A stretch of 53,085 nucleotides of DNA from a virus (lineage: Duplodnaviria > Caudoviricetes), in the IMG/VR virus record IMGVR_UViG_3300021389_000031, positions 1-53,085 of that record. One strand, given 5' to 3'. A program made the translations under genes and the position numbers. The notes beneath the pieces are model-generated. The model saw nothing but the letters and a program-made list of their open reading frames with translations. It ran no database searches and was not told the origin of the DNA. This document shows positions 2,070 to 47,784 of the stretch, in pieces (positions within the stretch are counted from its first letter, which is position 1; each line of letters starts with the position of its first letter).

Positions 2070-2633
2070 GTTTTTCGTGGTTCTCTGCGGTTTCATGGGG
2101 GTTTCCAAGTGATGCATCCCCCGTGAGGTATCCCTATACCCCATTTTTCTTCAGGGGAAAAAGATATTCCCGACGTGAAACATGTTGCAAAAATGTCACA
2201 GGAGAGGGGAGCATGTGGGTGAGGCAGGGGGGCATGGGCCATGGGGGGTGGCTATGTACGATTTATACCCACTCTGACAGAAATTTGGGATTTTTCGATC
2301 TGTAAAGGACATTATGAATAGCATCAACCTATCATAAACCCCCATATACATAGGGAAAAACTATCATAAAGGGTCCCTCTGTGTTTTGCAGCTTGAGAAG
2401 GGGTACTTTTGGTGTTTTTTGAGCGGTTTTCTGACAGTGTACGGCGGGTAGACCACATGTGTGCACTTTAAGTGGGGAACCTGAAGTAGTTGTAAGGTTT
2501 TTGGCTCTGGAAAATATTGATATTGAGGGGGCTGGAAAGGGGAAAAGGGGAGGTACTACACAAAAAGCTAGGTAACTGGACCTATCGGGCAACAAGAATG
2601 GTACCTTTTCTGGACCTAATGTCACTTTAGGGA

Positions 2634-2661
2634 TTGACAAACTTTCCGTTTCGGGTATAAT
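2634..2661 (+). promoter_or_regulatory. sigma70 promoter
   Basis: TTGACA-N16-TATAAT. Confidence 0.75.
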
Positions 2662-2920
2662 TCTCGTAGAGATCGTCTTAAGTAATACATGATGTTTCAA
2701 CCTAAGTCTTAACAACCTCTTCTAGTAAATCTAGAGAAAAAAGAAACCTAAAGTGCACTTAAGGTTACTACATAAGGTGCACTTTAAGTACGCTTGTAAG
2801 ATTTTTTCTATTTAGGTGGGAATGGTGATTAGGTGAACCAGAGGGTTCGACCCCCAAGTTGGGAACTTAAGGTACCTCGGGGGCCAGACTTAAGTATTTT
2901 TTGTTGTCCAACTTGAAGGG

Positions 2921-2948
2921 TTGACTTCAAGTGCACTTAAGGTATAAC
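2921..2948 (+). promoter_or_regulatory. sigma70-like promoter
   Basis: TTGACT-N16-TATAAC just before the 2957 ORF; GTGCACTTAAG in the spacer. Confidence 0.6.
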
Positions 2949-2956
2949 TCAAAGGA

Positions 2957-3226
2957 TTGTTTATGAAACTCTCAGATAATGTCATTGAAGAATTTTACTC
3001 TGCTGTTGCAGGTAACAACAATCATTTTATCTACTCTCTTCATATCCCTCTATCTGATGTCTTCTACACTAGGGAAGCTGTCTCAAACAAGTTCGGTAAG
3101 AGATTCACTCTGGATTACATTGAGTGGGCCATGCTGAAGGAGGGGATGATTTCCTCTAGGCACTGCTATCAGCCAGAGCTAAAGATGTCTTGGGATGAGT
3201 ATCCCTTGGATAAGGAAGTTAAGTGA
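2957..3226 (+). CDS. Hypothetical protein
   Basis: 89-aa ORF, AAGGA RBS (start may be ATG 2963), overlaps the endolysin start. Confidence 0.7.
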   Translation: MFMKLSDNVIEEFYSAVAGNNNHFIYSLHIPLSDVFYTREAVSNKFGKRFTLDYIEWAMLKEGMISSRHCYQPELKMSWDEYPLDKEVK

Positions 3227-3609
3227 TGTACCAACTTGGGATACGATCCCTTTCAAATCTGACAGGGGTTCATCCCGATTTGATTAAGGTAGTCCATAGG
3301 GCTATTCAACTCACCAAACAAGATTTCACTGTTATTGAAGGTATGAGGACTAAGAGTCGTCAGGAGGAACTCTTCAAGAAGGGTGCCTCAAAGACTTTGA
3401 ACTCACGTCACCTGACAGGTCATGCAGTTGATATCGCCCCTTGGGTAGACGGAGCTATCAGTTGGGATTGGAAGTACTACCCCGCAGTCAGGGATGCCAT
3501 GATGGCTGCTGGGGAAGAGTTTAAGGTGCCTCTCGAATGGGGTGGTAGCTGGAAGAGGTTCACGGACGGTCCCCATTGGCAATTGCCTTGGTCGGAGTAC
3601 CCACTGTGA
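3223..3609 (+). CDS. Endolysin, peptidase M15 family (L-Ala-D-Glu peptidase type)
   Basis: EGMRT..RQ, SRHLTGHAVD, WGGSW..F.DGPHWQL motifs. Confidence 0.9.
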   Translation: MMYQLGIRSLSNLTGVHPDLIKVVHRAIQLTKQDFTVIEGMRTKSRQEELFKKGASKTLNSRHLTGHAVDIAPWVDGAISWDWKYYPAVRDAMMAAGEEFKVPLEWGGSWKRFTDGPHWQLPWSEYPL

Positions 3610-3809
3610 GCCAAGAAGATTTTAACACCGTCCGGGGAGACCTCTACGCAATGGACAAGAGGTTAGCCCTCCTAGAACAAAAAGTAACTCAAATTGATAC
3701 TAACGTAGAGAAGATCGCTAGTGCTCTGGGTTGGATTGTGAAGATCACTGGCGGGGGCCTACTTACTGGTATCACTGCTTGGATCATCAAAGGTGGCTTG
3801 GGTGGGTAA
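3606..3809 (+). CDS. Holin/XhlA-like coiled-coil membrane protein
   Basis: GTG start 3606; coiled coil then C-terminal TM (WIVKITGGGLLTGITAWII). Confidence 0.55.
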   Translation: MSQEDFNTVRGDLYAMDKRLALLEQKVTQIDTNVEKIASALGWIVKITGGGLLTGITAWIIKGGLGG

Positions 3810-4032: not shown

Positions 4033-4270
4033 CCAACCCGGAGTAGCTGTAGAAGCTCAAGTTGGGAAAGAGAATACGAAGGTTATTGGTATCTCAGAAC
4101 AGGTGAAGGGTGACAAGGTTACCAAATCTGTTGAAGCCAACAACGTTGAAAATATCAATGTCCAACAAACTCCTGTGTGGTTGTACATAGCCCTGATACT
4201 GGGGTGGATGCTCCCAAGCCCGGGAGAGATGGCCAGAGGGATTCTATCCCTGTTCAAGAGGAAGACCTGA
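3950..4270 (+). CDS. Probable unimolecular spanin
   Basis: MIRTLLLLVMLTG|C lipobox plus C-terminal TM (PVWLYIALILGWMLP). Confidence 0.7.
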   Translation: MIRTLLLLVMLTGCTGLPGALLSTLTNSQPGVAVEAQVGKENTKVIGISEQVKGDKVTKSVEANNVENINVQQTPVWLYIALILGWMLPSPGEMARGILSLFKRKT

Positions 4271-4542
4271 TGCCTAGCTCCAAAAACTATAAAAGGGATT
4301 ATGGCCCCACTGGGGAGGGGAAGTACGATAAATCCCCTAAGCGGATGGAAGACAACCGGAAGCGTAAGGCTGCTAGGCGTATTCTGGAGAAACTCGGTAA
4401 GGTCTCCAAGAATGATGGTAAAGATGTAGACCATAAGAATGGTCGGCCTAAAGACAACAAAGCGTCTAACCTTCGTCCTCTCTCACCAGCCAAGAATCGT
4501 TCTATCCCTCGTACCAAGACAGCTAGGAAGAAAAATGGTTAA
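4270..4542 (+). CDS. HNH endonuclease
   Basis: ATG 4270 (MPSSKNYKRDY); DVDHKNG..DNKASNL..KNRS. Confidence 0.75.
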   Translation: MPSSKNYKRDYGPTGEGKYDKSPKRMEDNRKRKAARRILEKLGKVSKNDGKDVDHKNGRPKDNKASNLRPLSPAKNRSIPRTKTARKKNG

Positions 4543-44527: not shown

Positions 44528-45066
44528 TAGAAGGGGATCTCATCATCCTCAAGATCATCTTTGGGTGGGGCTGCTTTAGGGGCTGCAGCTTTTGCCTTGG
44601 GGGTCTCTGGAATATCATCATCATCATCTGCATCAGGGTGATACTCATTATGCTCGATCACGATAACTTTTTCCAACCGAGTACCTACAATGTTCTTGCG
44701 GCTGGTGTCGTATACCGAGAGAACTACATCAACAGTAGAGCCGTTACCAAGGAATCCATCAATATCAAAGTCCCAGAGACTACCATCGACCTTGATAACA
44801 GTGGGTGCACCACCTCCGTAGTTCTCCTCCCACTTACGCTTGAATTTTACCCGGGTACAACCCTCATGTTCTGGGCTGGGCTTACCAGTGAGCATGGACT
44901 TGGACTTCTTCAGCTTTGCGAAGTTGTCCCCATCGAGGTCCATATCAATAGTGGTCTGACCACCAGTTTCCTTGAGGGCATCTTCAAACCCAGTCAAGTC
45001 GCGGTTCTCGGGAAACACTTTTGCCCAATAGGAAAGACCACGAAGTTTAACTTTGCGAGTAGCCAT
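44527..45066 (-). CDS. Single-stranded DNA-binding protein (T7 gp2.5-like)
   Basis: LGNGS.V.V, RL..V.V, acidic tail ending DDEIPF. Confidence 0.82.
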   Translation of the reverse strand: MATRKVKLRGLSYWAKVFPENRDLTGFEDALKETGGQTTIDMDLDGDNFAKLKKSKSMLTGKPSPEHEGCTRVKFKRKWEENYGGGAPTVIKVDGSLWDFDIDGFLGNGSTVDVVLSVYDTSRKNIVGTRLEKVIVIEHNEYHPDADDDDDIPETPKAKAAAPKAAPPKDDLEDDEIPF

Positions 45067-45119
45067 TTATATTTCTCCATCTTCTGTTTGAGAATAGTAG
45101 CAGGTTTTCTTTAGTGTGG

Positions 45120-45686
45120 TCAATGGATATCTGCGTATCGCACACCGAATTGTGGATCAACGTCCAGAGGGACGTTTAGGTTCAGTCGTTTGTTAACTTT
45201 AGCAATAGCCAACTTCATCTTGTTGTAAGTGTCTTGCTGATCTCCATCTTTGATTTTGACAATAGTTTCGTCGTGGAACTGCCCTATACCCTTAAGTCCC
45301 ACAGACCAACATTGAGCAAGCCATGAGTCAAAGCAGTAGACCCCTGTACTCTGGTTCAAGGAAGAGAACACATCTTTCTCATACCGAAGGCTAATCCAGA
45401 AATTAGACACAGGGTTCTTAACCCACATCTGCCCATTGATCCTGCGAATAGGTTGAGCTTCCGAAAAGGCTTTGACTGCCCAGTTCCTATCCCAGTATGC
45501 CCTAATAAGGTCTGCACATTCCTGTTCTGGCATACCTGTTGTACGGGCTAGTTTGACCTTGCCTACCCCATAGATAGCACTGTAATTTACTGCCTTAAAC
45601 CGTTTCCTTACAGCTTTCAATCGGAGATATATGGCCTCCTGCTCTGGCTTGCTTAACTTCTTCATCTCTCCTAAAGTTAACTGCAT
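45120..45686 (-). CDS. polA: DNA polymerase A, C-terminal part (motifs B and C)
   Basis: R...K.VNY...YG (motif B), NQSTG, QFHDE (motif C); own GAGGA RBS. Confidence 0.9.
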   Translation of the reverse strand: MQLTLGEMKKLSKPEQEAIYLRLKAVRKRFKAVNYSAIYGVGKVKLARTTGMPEQECADLIRAYWDRNWAVKAFSEAQPIRRINGQMWVKNPVSNFWISLRYEKDVFSSLNQSTGVYCFDSWLAQCWSVGLKGIGQFHDETIVKIKDGDQQDTYNKMKLAIAKVNKRLNLNVPLDVDPQFGVRYADIH

Positions 45687-46137
45687 CAATTGCTTCCTCT
45701 AGTTTATCAAACCTACCTAAGTACTCTTTCTTTTTATTTAAGTAAAAAGACGCATCATACTTACCTTTATGGTAGTGAACACCCTTAGTGCCAGTCTTAT
45801 TATTGCGCCTAGCATATGTGTTAAAGGCATTTAGCTGTTTATCAGCGCCCCTCAGGTTGCTTGGGAGATTGTTAGACGTATTCCGATCAATGTGATCCAC
45901 ACAAGCAGGTAAGTACCCGTTACTGATAAAGAAGATAATCCTATGCACTAGCATCCTATATCGGAGACCATCTTCTGTCTTAAAGTTGACTTGTAAGTAT
46001 CCATTTTTATCAGGTGACCCAAGTGGCCTACCTGCAACCCTTGAGTTACTCTCCTCCCGTCTCCATGAAACAGGTTTGCCAAAAAGGACCCCATCCCGGA
46101 TCTCGAACAGTTCCTCTAGTTGTTCCCTTCGTACCAT
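45595..46137 (-). CDS. HNH-AP2 homing endonuclease inserted in polA
   Basis: HRII..VDHIDRN..NN..SNLR HNH; N.TG.KGV..YLGRF...EEA AP2-like domain. Confidence 0.9.
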   Translation of the reverse strand: MVRREQLEELFEIRDGVLFGKPVSWRREESNSRVAGRPLGSPDKNGYLQVNFKTEDGLRYRMLVHRIIFFISNGYLPACVDHIDRNTSNNLPSNLRGADKQLNAFNTYARRNNKTGTKGVHYHKGKYDASFYLNKKKEYLGRFDKLEEAIDAVNFRRDEEVKQARAGGHISPIESCKETV

Positions 46138-47462
46138 ATGTAAAATTGCTCCTCATCTGAAGTAATAACCCCCGCAAATTTTGAGAGGTTAATGTGCTCG
46201 TCAAACCCCGGCTTAGACATCTCCTCTACGTAGTCTGGATCATACGGGTGCATGTAGTGTCTCTTTGTAGTGGATTCTAGAGAGACCATATCTGCCCCAC
46301 AAAGTAATTCCCCTTCTTCGCAAGTTAGAGATCCCCGTATTTCTTTACCCCAAGGTTTATCAACCCCCGGGAGGTTCACGAGCGGTTTAGAGTGTTTGAA
46401 CCGAAGTGTGTTAGTAAGACCTGCAATCTCTGCCTTCACGTAGCCGTTGATGTGGCTATCAAGGATACCTTGAAAGGTCGCCAGTCTGTGTTGCAAGACA
46501 GTTAGTCCATCGAGAACCTCTACTGCAGGGTCTACATCAATCAGGAGTTTGACCGAAGGTGTAAGCTCTCCATCTTTTCTGACTTGTGGGACTTGTCGTT
46601 CCACCCCCTCATCGTTTGTCTTGTAGTCGAAGGTGCAAGGTTGCCACCCCAGAGAGTATAGCCATGCCTTAACTTGATCGGAGCTTCCGGGGTTAGCTTC
46701 CTCTTCCTTATCAAGGACCTTTACGGGTTCGTCATGAGTACGGTCAAGGCCAAGATCATCAAGAGTAGCGAACCAACGATCCCCAAGTACGGAGGGGGTC
46801 CCGTCTTTTTTGAAGGGGTTCTTCGGTTTTGTGACAACCTTGTACTTCTTGTTCTTTGGCATAACCTTTGTGAGTTCAACTGTCTTCTCCTCTTTGAGTT
46901 GGGTAAGGGTTTCTATAGAAGACCTCACCAGATCCAAATCAACCTTCCAGCCAACTTGCTCTTGATAGGCTGCACACTCCATCTTGAAGGAGAGATACTT
47001 GAGAAACCTGTCAGCCTCTTTCTTGTCCTTATAGAGAAACATCAGACGCTTGGTCAAGTCTTTCCAGAGCTTCCAGTTGATTTTGACATCTTCTGCACAG
47101 CGATGCCCGTACTCTTCTTTAGTAAGACTCTTCCAATCCTCGACATGTGGTTTGGGGACTCCGTACTTCTCCCCATAGAACTCTAGACCATGCTTGAGTT
47201 GATCGTGATCTAGGTACCAAGCCAGTGGTAGTGTGTCGTAAAAAGTGGCTGTGATATCTACACCAAGGATCTTCTTGATAACCCTCTTGTCGTACCGGAT
47301 ACCGTTGTGGGCGACAAGCCAATTTGCACTGGTCAAGAAGTCCCGCATGTCACCGTAGTCATACAAGACCGTAGGCTCTTCCCCAGCACGGGTGTAGGCT
47401 AGGCAGTGGATCTTGGTTGCGCCCTCATACAGATCGTCTGCTTCAATGTCGAATACTGCCAA
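46116..47462 (-). CDS. polA: DNA polymerase A, N-terminal part (3'-5' exonuclease, thumb, motif A)
   Basis: TTG 47462 after GGAGG; FDIEAD, HNGI.YD, C..DV exonuclease motifs; T.RF.H..P.VNLP; GADM.SLE motif A. Confidence 0.9.
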   Translation of the reverse strand: MAVFDIEADDLYEGATKIHCLAYTRAGEEPTVLYDYGDMRDFLTSANWLVAHNGIRYDKRVIKKILGVDITATFYDTLPLAWYLDHDQLKHGLEFYGEKYGVPKPHVEDWKSLTKEEYGHRCAEDVKINWKLWKDLTKRLMFLYKDKKEADRFLKYLSFKMECAAYQEQVGWKVDLDLVRSSIETLTQLKEEKTVELTKVMPKNKKYKVVTKPKNPFKKDGTPSVLGDRWFATLDDLGLDRTHDEPVKVLDKEEEANPGSSDQVKAWLYSLGWQPCTFDYKTNDEGVERQVPQVRKDGELTPSVKLLIDVDPAVEVLDGLTVLQHRLATFQGILDSHINGYVKAEIAGLTNTLRFKHSKPLVNLPGVDKPWGKEIRGSLTCEEGELLCGADMVSLESTTKRHYMHPYDPDYVEEMSKPGFDEHINLSKFAGVITSDEEQFYIWYEGNN

Positions 47463-47463
47463 G

Positions 47464-47784
47464 TCATTCCTCCAGTTCTCCTTGAATTGAAAGGATAAGG
47501 TCGGGGACATCTCCTGTCAAGACTGTGACCCCTTGATCCTTGTACATATATAGCACACTCCAACCATATGGATCGTATCCATAGGAGTCTTTACCACACC
47601 TATAGATCGAACCACTATACCCCAAGAACTCATAGAAGTTCGAGTGTTCTACAATCTTTGTGATGCCACTGTTAAACCTCCAACTATGGCCAACAAGATA
47701 ACCGCCTGACCAAGTGCCGAACACCCGATAACAATTGGGGGTTTTCACTAGGACCCACCTATCTGGTGTATAAATGCTAACCAT
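47464..47784 (-). CDS. Conserved hypothetical phage protein
   Basis: PDRWV...W.GGYL...SWR.NSGI....G.SGS.Y.C. Confidence 0.75.
   Translation of the reverse strand: MVSIYTPDRWVLVKTPNCYRVFGTWSGGYLVGHSWRFNSGITKIVEHSNFYEFLGYSGSIYRCGKDSYGYDPYGWSVLYMYKDQGVTVLTGDVPDLILSIQGELEE

Follow-up and report, generated by a model that had tools for sequence, protein, structure and literature searches.

[quoted passage not shown] We consider it likely (probability of about 0.75) that the two ORFs encode a two-subunit polymerase that assembles without splicing, and that the slot between them hosts interchangeable homing-type nucleases. The locus lies in a metagenome-derived virus record of 53,085 nucleotides, analysed over its whole length (the window). 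The phage is a Zobellviridae-like podophage known from metagenomes only. In the proposed arrangement, the break would fall within the fingers, in a linker of variable length that follows motif A and precedes motif B, so that the N-subunit contributes the exonuclease, the thumb and motif A, and the C-subunit motifs B and C. Each part would be translated alone, the N-part ending at its own stop after a short tail and the C-part starting at its own ribosome-binding site and ATG, and the two would assemble non-covalently into one polymerase fold, as suggested by sequence and modelling. The gap of ~430 nt would serve as a slot for free-standing nuclease genes, occupied here by an I-HmuI-like HNH_3 gene and in relatives by Endonuclease VII, another HNH, a decayed remnant or nothing.

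The splitting of an essential enzyme by a selfish nuclease has so far been a curiosity of a few T4-like phages. Here a family A replicative polymerase is broken in the fingers, between the catalytic regions of motifs A and B, and the break is retained in many diverged uncultured phages, also where the nuclease is decayed or absent. Natural split sites with short, putative docking peptides for PolA are of interest to protein engineers, and the locus is well suited to finding out whether homing endonucleases give rise to split genes or settle in genes already split. For viromics it is a warning: split and mosaic alleles of PolA, much used as a marker, will distort gene calls, phylogenies and 'Leu/Phe/Tyr762' typing.

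Organization of the polA locus

The N-part and the C-part are colinear with single PolA genes in an alignment with 4 annotated and 21 IMG/VR unsplit sequences, and the 3'-5' exonuclease motif and polymerase motifs A, B and C are all kept across the two (Table 1). Their homology to PolA is far beyond chance, since tblastn against intact phage PolA genes gave E values of 3e-141 for the N-part and 2e-56 for the C-part. Both parts matched phrog_17 (E 4e-64 for the N-part). The C-part also matched Pfam PF00476 (E 4.2e-14). The N-part alone gave no Pfam match at E<=0.01 and is identified by its PHROG match and by T7 DNA polymerase chains in the PDB (E 7e-4).

Table 1. Coordinates of the features of the split polA locus in the window.
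Feature	Position	Strand	Remark
polA N-subunit gene	46116..47462	(-)	3'-5' exonuclease domain, thumb, palm motif A, initial portion of the fingers
Motif A region GADMVSLE, with catalytic Asp	46275..46298	(-)	invariant alignment columns
N-tail IWYEGNN, 7 residues	46119..46139	(-)	beyond the last residue common to unsplit relatives
Free-standing HNH_3 endonuclease gene, 180 aa	45595..46137	(-)	ATG 46137 to TAA 45595; fills the slot
HNH catalytic motif region	45829..45900	(-)	HNH_3 profile and I-HmuI 1U3E match
GAGGA ribosome-binding site of the C-subunit gene	45695..45699	(-)	within the HNH ORF; predicted from sequence
polA C-subunit gene, 188 aa from ATG 45686	45120..45686	(-)	fingers O-helix/motif B, palm motif C, C-terminus
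C-head MQLTLGEMKKL	45654..45686	(-)	N-terminal peptide kept in stand-alone C-subunits
Motif B RKRFKAVNYSAIYG	45567..45608	(-)	contains the HNH stop codon
Motif C QFHDE	45267..45281	(-)	alignment to PolA relatives

The N-part ORF is open from 47510, and the TTG at 47462 is favoured as its start because of the relatives and a GGAGG located 7 nt upstream, in agreement with the coordinate of the initial annotation. It terminates at a TAG (46118-46116), 52 codons after motif A. There are three start candidates for the C-part (TTG 45689, ATG 45686 and ATG 45665). The GAGGA is separated from ATG 45686 by a spacer of 8 nt, and motif B follows 26 codons after this ATG. The HNH ORF overlaps the N-part by 22 nt and the C-part by 92 nt; its start codon sits within the N-tail, and its final 17-24 codons are polA C-part sequence in another frame. 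The N-part stop, the C-part start with its own ribosome-binding site and both overlaps had been described in the initial annotation, and all of these coordinates were reproduced on recalculation. A scan for promoters and terminators yielded counts no higher than in shuffled sequences.

The gene in the slot matched Pfam HNH_3 (E 4.7e-10; about 39.4-41.8 bits against a curated cut-off of 24.8) and PHROG 99 (E 4.7e-44). The latter match covers residues 4-159, indicating that a C-terminal domain exists. The only match in the PDB was I-HmuI (1U3E; E 5.9e-4, residues 43-111). Of the earlier label 'HNH-AP2', the HNH component is borne out and the AP2 component is not confirmed: a Pfam search at E<=10 returned HNH_3 alone. 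Homologues of the HNH protein were found at 14 loci in IMG/VR (28-43% identity) and at 80 loci kept from JGI metagenome contigs (<=45% identity), none of which sits in a PolA gene. At one of the loci examined (L081), an HNH gene precedes an intact PolA by ~450 nt, but this PolA is unrelated. A homologue with 38% identity in the Felix O1-like phage fBSPA4 was rejected as a counterpart, as it is located past the 3' end of a two-ORF polA, a different site.

Slot occupants and the origin of the break

Of 249 related IMG/VR loci, nine have their break where the window has it, together with conserved N-tails and heads. The tails of split loci follow the pattern F-Y/F-x-W/S-Y/F plus 4-6 residues and then a stop; the x-W-Y/F pattern of the window is kept in 8 of the 9 other loci, with S in place of W in the remaining one. 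An SD-like motif precedes the C start in 7 of the 9. Among homologues of 103-329 aa, 69 of the best 120 were stand-alone C-subunits starting at the conserved head, on contigs of up to 55 kb; the length limits of the search bias this proportion, and it is no measure of frequency. The split arrangement is kept among homologues of 50-74% identity with intact ORFs. Conservation of tail and head as protein, in nine loci and 69 C-subunits, is expected only if both are translated.

The slot is variably occupied. Six loci (L132, L133, L208, L209, L250 and L307) carry Endonuclease_7, recognized by Pfam in L132 (E 7e-19) and L133 (E 3.5e-18) and by shared sequence motifs in the other four. L148 has a 47-aa Endonuclease_7 remnant (E 9e-9), L167 an HNH gene of phrog_374 (E 2e-57), and L170 no nuclease gene. 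Some relatives with just 72-80 nt from the N stop to the C start keep the split. The occurrence of the same break, tail and head with other occupants or none indicates that the split is older than, or independent of, the HNH_3 gene of the window. Judging from these comparisons, HNH_3 probably entered a polA that was already split, or displaced an earlier occupant, and would not have made the split itself. The initial annotation had attributed the division of polA to a homing endonuclease, which in this lineage is probably wrong.

A de novo insertion of this HNH gene into an intact polA, in direct analogy to Aeh1 mobE, is unlikely, although several features are in line with it. The gap is filled exactly and both halves are overlapped, and the GC content of the slot (42.3%) is below that of the two polA parts (47.9% and 45.5%). 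Between strains, the HNH is far less diverged than its flanks: a variant strain in sequencing run X2 likewise carries the HNH and differs from the window at 3 of 602 positions over it (0.5%), at 11 of 651 in the next contig and at 6.5-8% farther out. By its divergence and GC content the HNH looks recently transferred, which equally suits its entry into an already split gene. There is also no Endonuclease VII remnant detectable in the window by tblastn (best E 0.5); searching the record of the window for PF02945 likewise returned nothing, but this outcome is uninformative, as the controls returned nothing either. Against the insertion, the window's tail and head match those of split loci with unrelated nucleases or none, and the same tail and head would not be recreated by independent insertion. 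Moreover, L208, the closest of the relatives whose gene context is available (66% identity in the N-part), has its break at identical codons and an Endonuclease VII gene in the slot, and in the window's clade 33 of 38 members are split.

This clade (99*; 38 rows) was recovered in a 139-row tree on which the split label changes 15 times, with at least 6 changes forced by starred branches. Note that the number and direction of split/unsplit changes are rough, since the tree is unrooted, was searched quickly and rests on 162 columns of a demonstrably recombining gene. The recombination is visible in pairs of sequences. The unsplit P0089 and the split P0046 agree at 141 of 147 positions in the stretch that begins 15 residues beyond the motif B start, and at only 2 of 25 upstream of it; the pairs P0075/P0058 and P0040/P0038 show the same mosaic behaviour. 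As judged from these alignments, split and unsplit genes can carry near-identical C-parts, and the recombination break points lie next to motif B. Local recombination next to the slot would swap split and unsplit states among polymerase genes that are nearly identical, in the way that nuclease-driven homing with co-conversion would.

A more far-reaching proposal, which we advance tentatively and to which we would give somewhat less than an even chance, is that a homing 'split cassette' turns intact PolA into two-subunit enzymes. The mobile unit would comprise the N-tail with its stop, a swappable nuclease gene, the ribosome-binding site, the Met and the C-head, and it would home into an intact PolA gene, at a point past motif A and ahead of motif B. 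Tail and head would come with it as docking peptides that keep the host enzyme functional despite the cut. The split would stay even as one nuclease gives way to another (HNH_3, Endonuclease VII, another HNH) or disappears, and conversions between split and unsplit states would be continuing in natural phage populations.

No cultured model phage with this split was found, and the deposited relatives that were opened have single unsplit genes. Megablast of window positions 45000-47600 against deposited phages gave no match. A stand-alone C-subunit (P0010) matched 266 deposited records, all at <60% identity, and the best 25 of the 266 match DNA polymerase genes. A second PolA break, at the exonuclease/polymerase boundary, was also seen in relatives.

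Two polypeptides or one

The initial annotation had suggested either a heterodimeric PolA assembling in trans or an unusual bypass or splicing event. The first of these suggestions is well supported by the conserved tail and head peptides and by the lack of an intron-model match, of an open frame for an intein and of spare sequence; the second finds no support, given the absence of an intron-model match, the 429 nt with seven stops between the N stop and the C start, and the C-part's own ribosome-binding site and Met. Complex prediction with the N- and C-parts gave an ipSAE of 0.89 (best control 0.00), with the mark for this score being reached by 58 of 80 solved complexes and by 2 of 110 mismatched pairs. 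The runs agreed in at least 96% of contacts, the pLDDT of the partner was at least 89, and the modelled interface includes tail residues 443-444 and 448 and head residues 2-6 and 8-9. Such a pass is expected because the halves resemble single-chain PolA structures; it indicates that they still fit one fold and is not proof of binding. The score may stem from a memory of intact PolA folds in the predictor.

Could polA be inactivated, with its pieces decaying and the phage depending on another polymerase? The split does break covalent continuity within the active-site region. However, every catalytic motif is intact, the arrangement occurs in sequencing runs of at least 3 other studies, and it has been kept with intact ORFs across the divergence of homologues described above. 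In addition, 27 of 32 N-part differences from X2 are synonymous (from the 40 of 76 X2 differences listed), although some of this sign of purifying selection may be older than the split in the lineage of the window. We regard inactivation as very improbable.

A group I or group II intron that carries the HNH gene and is spliced from the mRNA to yield one polypeptide, in the style of SPO1 I-HmuI or Pf-WMP3, is less credible still. The idea is suggested by the related HNH endonucleases, such as I-HmuI, that are intron-encoded in other phage PolA genes (PMC3428280, in the part drawn on here). An Rfam scan of positions 45000-46700 at E<=10, a search with intron models that had been proposed earlier, produced no group I or group II match and just three chance-level matches (ssnA at E 0.06, below the gathering score). 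The insert measures about 471 nt, of which at most about 20-40 nt are outside HNH-coding sequence. HNH homologues align over residues 1-163 of 180, leaving no spare sequence for an intron core, and no non-coding stretch sufficient for group I P3-P9 exists beside the HNH ORF. These results agree with the earlier statement that there is no separate space for a group I core and that intein termini are absent. The relatives with a gap of 72-80 nt and the conservation of tail and head as protein also argue against splicing, and the site differs from the PolA intron sites 674, 676 and 881 given in the same portion of PMC3428280.

An intein or split intein joining the halves at the protein level can practically be discounted. 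Dassa et al. 2009 described 'fractured genes' whose halves likewise enclose a free-standing nuclease gene (PMC2677866, as far as the part used here goes). In the window, the extra peptides of 7 residues (tail) and ~11 residues (head) are too short for intein halves, and no open frame runs across the slot, in which the frame shared by the N- and C-parts contains 7 stops.

The common frame of the two parts, with the HNH ORF lying in another, would permit translational bypass or read-through. T4 gene 60 needs a 50-nt translational bypass, and known bypasses span about 50 nt. Nothing alike was seen in PolA here: the distance and the stops to be crossed, together with the C-part's own ribosome-binding site and conserved Met, leave this route a negligible chance.

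The record is a metagenome assembly, but a chimera can be set aside, as a 20-kb contig from the possible source sample (X1) spans the whole stretch at even depth, contigs from other studies (X2, X3 and X4) cover HNH and polA sequence, and nine other loci have the same architecture. The junction between the HNH end and the C-part start is bridged in other studies by an X2 contig (45537-46138) and an X3 contig (45481-45862). Outside X1, the junction between the N stop and the HNH start is only tiled by two X2 contigs overlapping by 28 nt, with no independent single contig bridging it by 31 letters on each side. A joint in X1 from 45584 to 46392 encloses 312 letters where the window has 807, as a polA shorter by ~495 nt in a relative would. 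It was rejected as an HNH-less allele: its sides match over just 23 and 30 letters, and it was taken to represent the conserved motifs of another organism.

Comparison with known split genes

The combination of a split gene with a homing nuclease is already known, from Aeh1 nrdA/mobE and from gp43A/B of phage 25. The Aeh1 arrangement nrdA-a/mobE/nrdA-b was reportedly described by Friedrich et al. in 2007.

The comparisons that follow draw on parts of the cited papers. The 'genes in pieces' of Aeromonas phage Aeh1 (Crona et al. 2011, PMC3045599; PMC2988022) resemble the present locus in that an essential, replication-related gene is divided into two ORFs on either side of a free-standing homing endonuclease gene of the HNH family, each ORF being translated by itself, with neither intron nor intein. 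The Aeh1 pieces assemble into a working enzyme, whereas separate translation and assembly are, here, predicted from sequence and modelling. The host gene also differs (nrdA as opposed to a family A DNA polymerase), and Aeh1 represents one phage with one nuclease, in contrast to the PolA break, which occurs in many diverged phages with different nuclease families.

In Aeromonas phages 25 and 44RR, gene 43 exists as two pieces, 43A and 43B, and phage 25 also has seg43(25) (Petrov et al. 2010, via PMC2988022); the pieces co-purify and are active (PMC2988022). As with PolA here, a replicative DNA polymerase is encoded by two cistrons, and the endonuclease is present or absent depending on the member. 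However, gene 43 is of family B, its nuclease is a GIY-YIG seg and its site is another, as compared with family A and HNH plus Endonuclease VII. PMC2988022 asks, as we do here, whether gene 43 was split before the nuclease arrived. T4 gene 39/mobA/gene 60 is a further case, in which an HNH-family gene separates two pieces of a gene that relatives carry undivided (PMC2988022).

Group I introns with HNH nicking endonucleases are present in the PolA genes of SPO1 (I-HmuI), SP82 (I-HmuII), Bastille (I-BasI), Pf-WMP3 (I-PfoP3I) and PhiI/W31 (I-TslI) (PMC3428280). They share with the window the PolA host gene, a related endonuclease and a target in the fingers/palm coding region. They are self-splicing elements at positions corresponding to E. 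coli Pol I 674, 676 and 881, while the insert described here has no intron RNA match and lies between motifs A and B, and its PolA is predicted to be two polypeptides rather than a spliced product.

Several phages have been noted to carry PolA as more than one ORF, in some cases with an intervening HNH gene. In Aeromonas podophage MQM1 it consists of three ORFs with HNH between, discussed as a possible intron (PMC10410586). Split PolA genes are also found in OM43 phages MEP401/402, that of MEP401 being discussed as a possible intron (PMC10580990), in an uncultured cyanophage lineage (bioRxiv 10.1101/325100) and in Salmonella phage Mushroom (PMC4392139). The portions of these reports used here do not define the break point, the tail and head or nuclease turnover, and the literature covered, which excluded supplements and subscription journals, yielded no account of a PolA break at this point or of nucleases replacing one another there. 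The MEP401-type break is probably at another site, the exonuclease/polymerase boundary.

Organization of the interrupted polymerase gene

The window (IMG/VR virus record, 53,085 bp; estimated completeness 95%) carries a minus-strand replication module in the order primase-helicase, PolA, SSB and ThyX. At 46-54% identity, the closest named relatives belong to the Zobellviridae or are allied podophages (KZY1, CRP-6, Pseudomonas phages O4 and PA11, Salinivibrio CW02). The PolA frame is interrupted exactly as the initial annotation had claimed: the coordinates of the N-part stop, the HNH ORF and the C-part start were all reproduced, as were the overlaps of the HNH ORF with the N-part (22 nt) and the C-part (92 nt). 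Motif A lies 52 codons upstream of the N-part stop, motif B begins 26 codons downstream of the C-part start, and between them the two ORFs retain an intact exonuclease motif and polymerase motifs A, B and C. The split is a real feature.

One 20-kb contig from sequencing run X1, which may be the source sample, spans the whole stretch. With regard to misassembly, the junction between the HNH end and the C-part start is bridged by contigs from other studies (X2, 45537-46138; X3, 45481-45862), whereas the junction between the N-part stop and the HNH start is, outside X1, merely tiled by two X2 contigs with a 28-nt overlap. Run X4 contains HNH pieces.

The inserted ORF has an intact HNH motif, and I-HmuI, the endonuclease of the SPO1 intron (1U3E, E 5.9e-4), is its sole match in PDB. 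The additional label "AP2" found no Pfam support even at E<=10. The HNH start codon lies inside the codons of the tail, the seven residues ending the N-part, 19 nt before the N-part stop, and translation of the HNH is therefore probably coupled to N-part translation, which would limit it. Within the HNH ORF, 35 nt from its start and 14 nt past the N-part stop, is a terminator-like hairpin with a T-run behind it (46087-46102, minus strand). HNH expression could be damped by this hairpin, but sites of the kind were no more frequent in the scan than in shuffled sequence (three against 2.5). G+C reaches its regional minimum (38.5%) at 45600-45899, along with a strongly negative GC skew, and this stretch matches the 3' half of the HNH ORF. 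Another ORF of HNH_3 type, which is small (4177-4542, plus strand; 121 aa; PF13392, 25.7 bits, barely above cut-off), lies among small ORFs beside peptidase-like and membrane-protein-like ORFs and is unrelated to the HNH in polA at the DNA level.

A persistent break with changing occupants

With the C-part as query and protein length deliberately limited to 103-329 aa, a large protein collection gave 282 matches. Among the best 120 of these, 41 were pieces of unsplit genes and 69 were stand-alone C-subunits of ~175-193 aa, which share 50-74% identity with the window and come from contigs as long as 55 kb. The 69 open with Met and the conserved head that also begins the window's C-part (its first 11 residues), typically M-x-L-T-L-E-E-M-K-x-L-P. 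Context was examined for 249 IMG/VR loci, with a few contigs counted twice; in nine the split falls at the same codons (L132, L133, L148, L167, L170, L208, L209, L250 and L307). In all nine, the last residue common to unsplit genes is followed by a tail of F-Y/F, x, W (S in one), Y/F and 4-6 more residues before the stop, and the C-part begins with the same head. Note that in L209 (2155-4061) and L307 (2070-4064) the ORF ending at the slot does not open until the polymerase domain (308 and 336 aa); PolA here seems to be in three pieces, namely exonuclease, polymerase-N and, beyond an Endonuclease VII gene, polymerase-C.

Features of the polA locus in the window and occupants of the slot between the two polA parts in split relatives
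Feature	Location	Strand	Signals or support
polA N-part	likely start TTG 47462, stop TAG 46118-46116	minus	start from relatives and GGAGG 7 nt upstream
HNH_3 ORF (slot occupant)	window, ATG 46137 to TAA 45595	minus	Pfam E 4.7e-10; PHROG 99 E 4.7e-44
polA C-part	start ATG 45686	minus	8 nt downstream of GAGGA
Slot: Endonuclease VII-type ORF	six loci		Pfam PF02945 E 7e-19 and 3.5e-18 for two tested; others by motifs in common
Slot: 47-residue Endonuclease VII remnant, 80-nt gap	L148		E 9e-9
Slot: different HNH	L167		phrog_374, E 2e-57
Slot: none, stop-to-start distance 72 nt	L170		

The occupant of the break is exchanged, decayed or lost while the break persists. No Endonuclease VII trace was found in the window, and its closest relative with context, L208 (N-part identity 66%), carries Endonuclease VII. 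The proposal that the window's HNH split polA is therefore probably wrong, since relatives keep the same break with other occupants or none, and the HNH is more likely a newcomer in a pre-existing slot. The same question, whether the nuclease entered an already split gene, is raised in PMC2988022 with respect to gp43A/43B in the Aeromonas phages 25 and 44RR.

A probable polymerase of two polypeptides

The sequence supports the suggestion of a two-polypeptide PolA, as the N-part has its own stop, the C-part its own RBS and start, and tail and head are conserved as protein in split relatives. This conservation, together with that of the stop and start positions, is predicted by separate translation and is not expected of intron sequence. 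The two polypeptides would assemble non-covalently into one PolA fold. A model of the N + C complex reached an ipSAE of 0.89 (best control 0.00); among complexes of solved structure 58 of 80 attained this mark, as did 2 of 110 mismatched pairs. Contact agreement between runs was at least 96% and partner pLDDT at least 89. In the model, the strand bearing motif A in the N-part is paired with the C-part's motif C region, and both tail and head contribute residues to the interface. Such a pass is expected from the likeness of the halves to solved single-chain PolA structures, and indicates no more than their continued fit to a common fold.

The initial annotation had allowed for splicing or bypass instead, while noting that there was no room for an intron. 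Rfam detected no group I or II intron at E<=10 within 45000-46700. Unsplit PolA genes (4 annotated and 21 from IMG/VR) are continuous at the break point, with a linker of 6-19 residues, and relative to these the window carries an insert of ~471 nt. HNH homologues align from HNH residue 1 to about 163, so nearly all inserted bases are HNH coding, in keeping with the lack of room; the final 17-24 HNH codons are polA sequence in another frame, until the stop inside motif B. N-part and C-part share a frame with seven stops in between, and the HNH is in a different frame. An intein is thereby excluded, and read-through or bypass across 429 nt is implausible.

This kind of arrangement is already known from genes in pieces such as Aeh1 nrdA/mobE, T4 39/mobA/60 and phage 25 gp43A/43B (PMC2988022). 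At the annotation level, split PolA has been noted in podophage MQM1 (PMC10410586), OM43 phages MEP401/402 (PMC10580990), an uncultured cyanophage lineage (bioRxiv 10.1101/325100) and phage Mushroom (PMC4392139), with introns suggested in two of the four. The PolA intron sites listed in PMC3428280 (E. coli positions 674, 676 and 881) differ from the window's break site. Searches of open-access main texts turned up no account of a PolA gene broken at a conserved point between motifs A and B, with a conserved tail and head on either side of interchangeable nucleases.

Probable exchange between split and unsplit genes, and a second break site

A quick unrooted maximum-likelihood tree was built from motif B to the C-terminus (139 rows, 162 columns). 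On it the split/unsplit label requires 15 changes, at least six of these forced by well-supported branches, as compared to an average of 44 for label shuffles. The window's clade (99*) holds 38 rows, 33 of them split. The changes are accompanied by mosaic pairs of C-part homologues. P0089 (unsplit) and P0046 (split) are identical at 141/147 positions from 15 residues past the motif B start and at only 2/25 upstream of that point; in P0075/P0058 and P0040/P0038, identity is ~96% from residue +40 and about half over the 40 residues before it, while the sequences further upstream are unrelated. Thus, near-identical polymerase genes differ by a replaced patch around the slot, the footprint that would be expected of nuclease-triggered gene conversion in either direction. 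Phage homing endonuclease genes are treated as recombination promoters in the abstract of PMC10448857, whose title places nuclease genes at genetic-exchange boundaries.

The X2 strain diverges from the window by 3/602 over the HNH, 11/651 in the adjoining contig and 6.5-8% at greater distance on either side. Among the 32 N-part differences listed (40 of 76 being listed in all), 27 are synonymous and 5 conservative. GC is 42.3% in the slot, versus 47.9% and 45.5% in the two polA parts. The low HNH divergence and low slot GC suit a recently transferred element with co-converted flanks.

Many related PolA genes (L018-L024, L026-L028, L030) have a second break site at the exonuclease/polymerase boundary (~residues 160-168 of the window's N-part), where the window polA is uninterrupted. 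In some of these loci the break is only a frame change or stop-start overlap; L020 holds a 68-aa ORF with no assigned function (3435-3641) and L019 a 268-aa ORF resembling cytosine-5 DNA methyltransferase (2226-3032). The "split DNAP with a small unknown ORF" reported for OM43 phages MEP401/402 probably represents this break. In the Felix O1-like Salmonella phage fBSPA4 (L045, 32-3504), polA is annotated as two ORFs with a 229-nt gap without annotated ORF, in agreement with the published remark on phage Mushroom, and an HNH 38% identical to the window's overlaps the 3' end of the second polA ORF.
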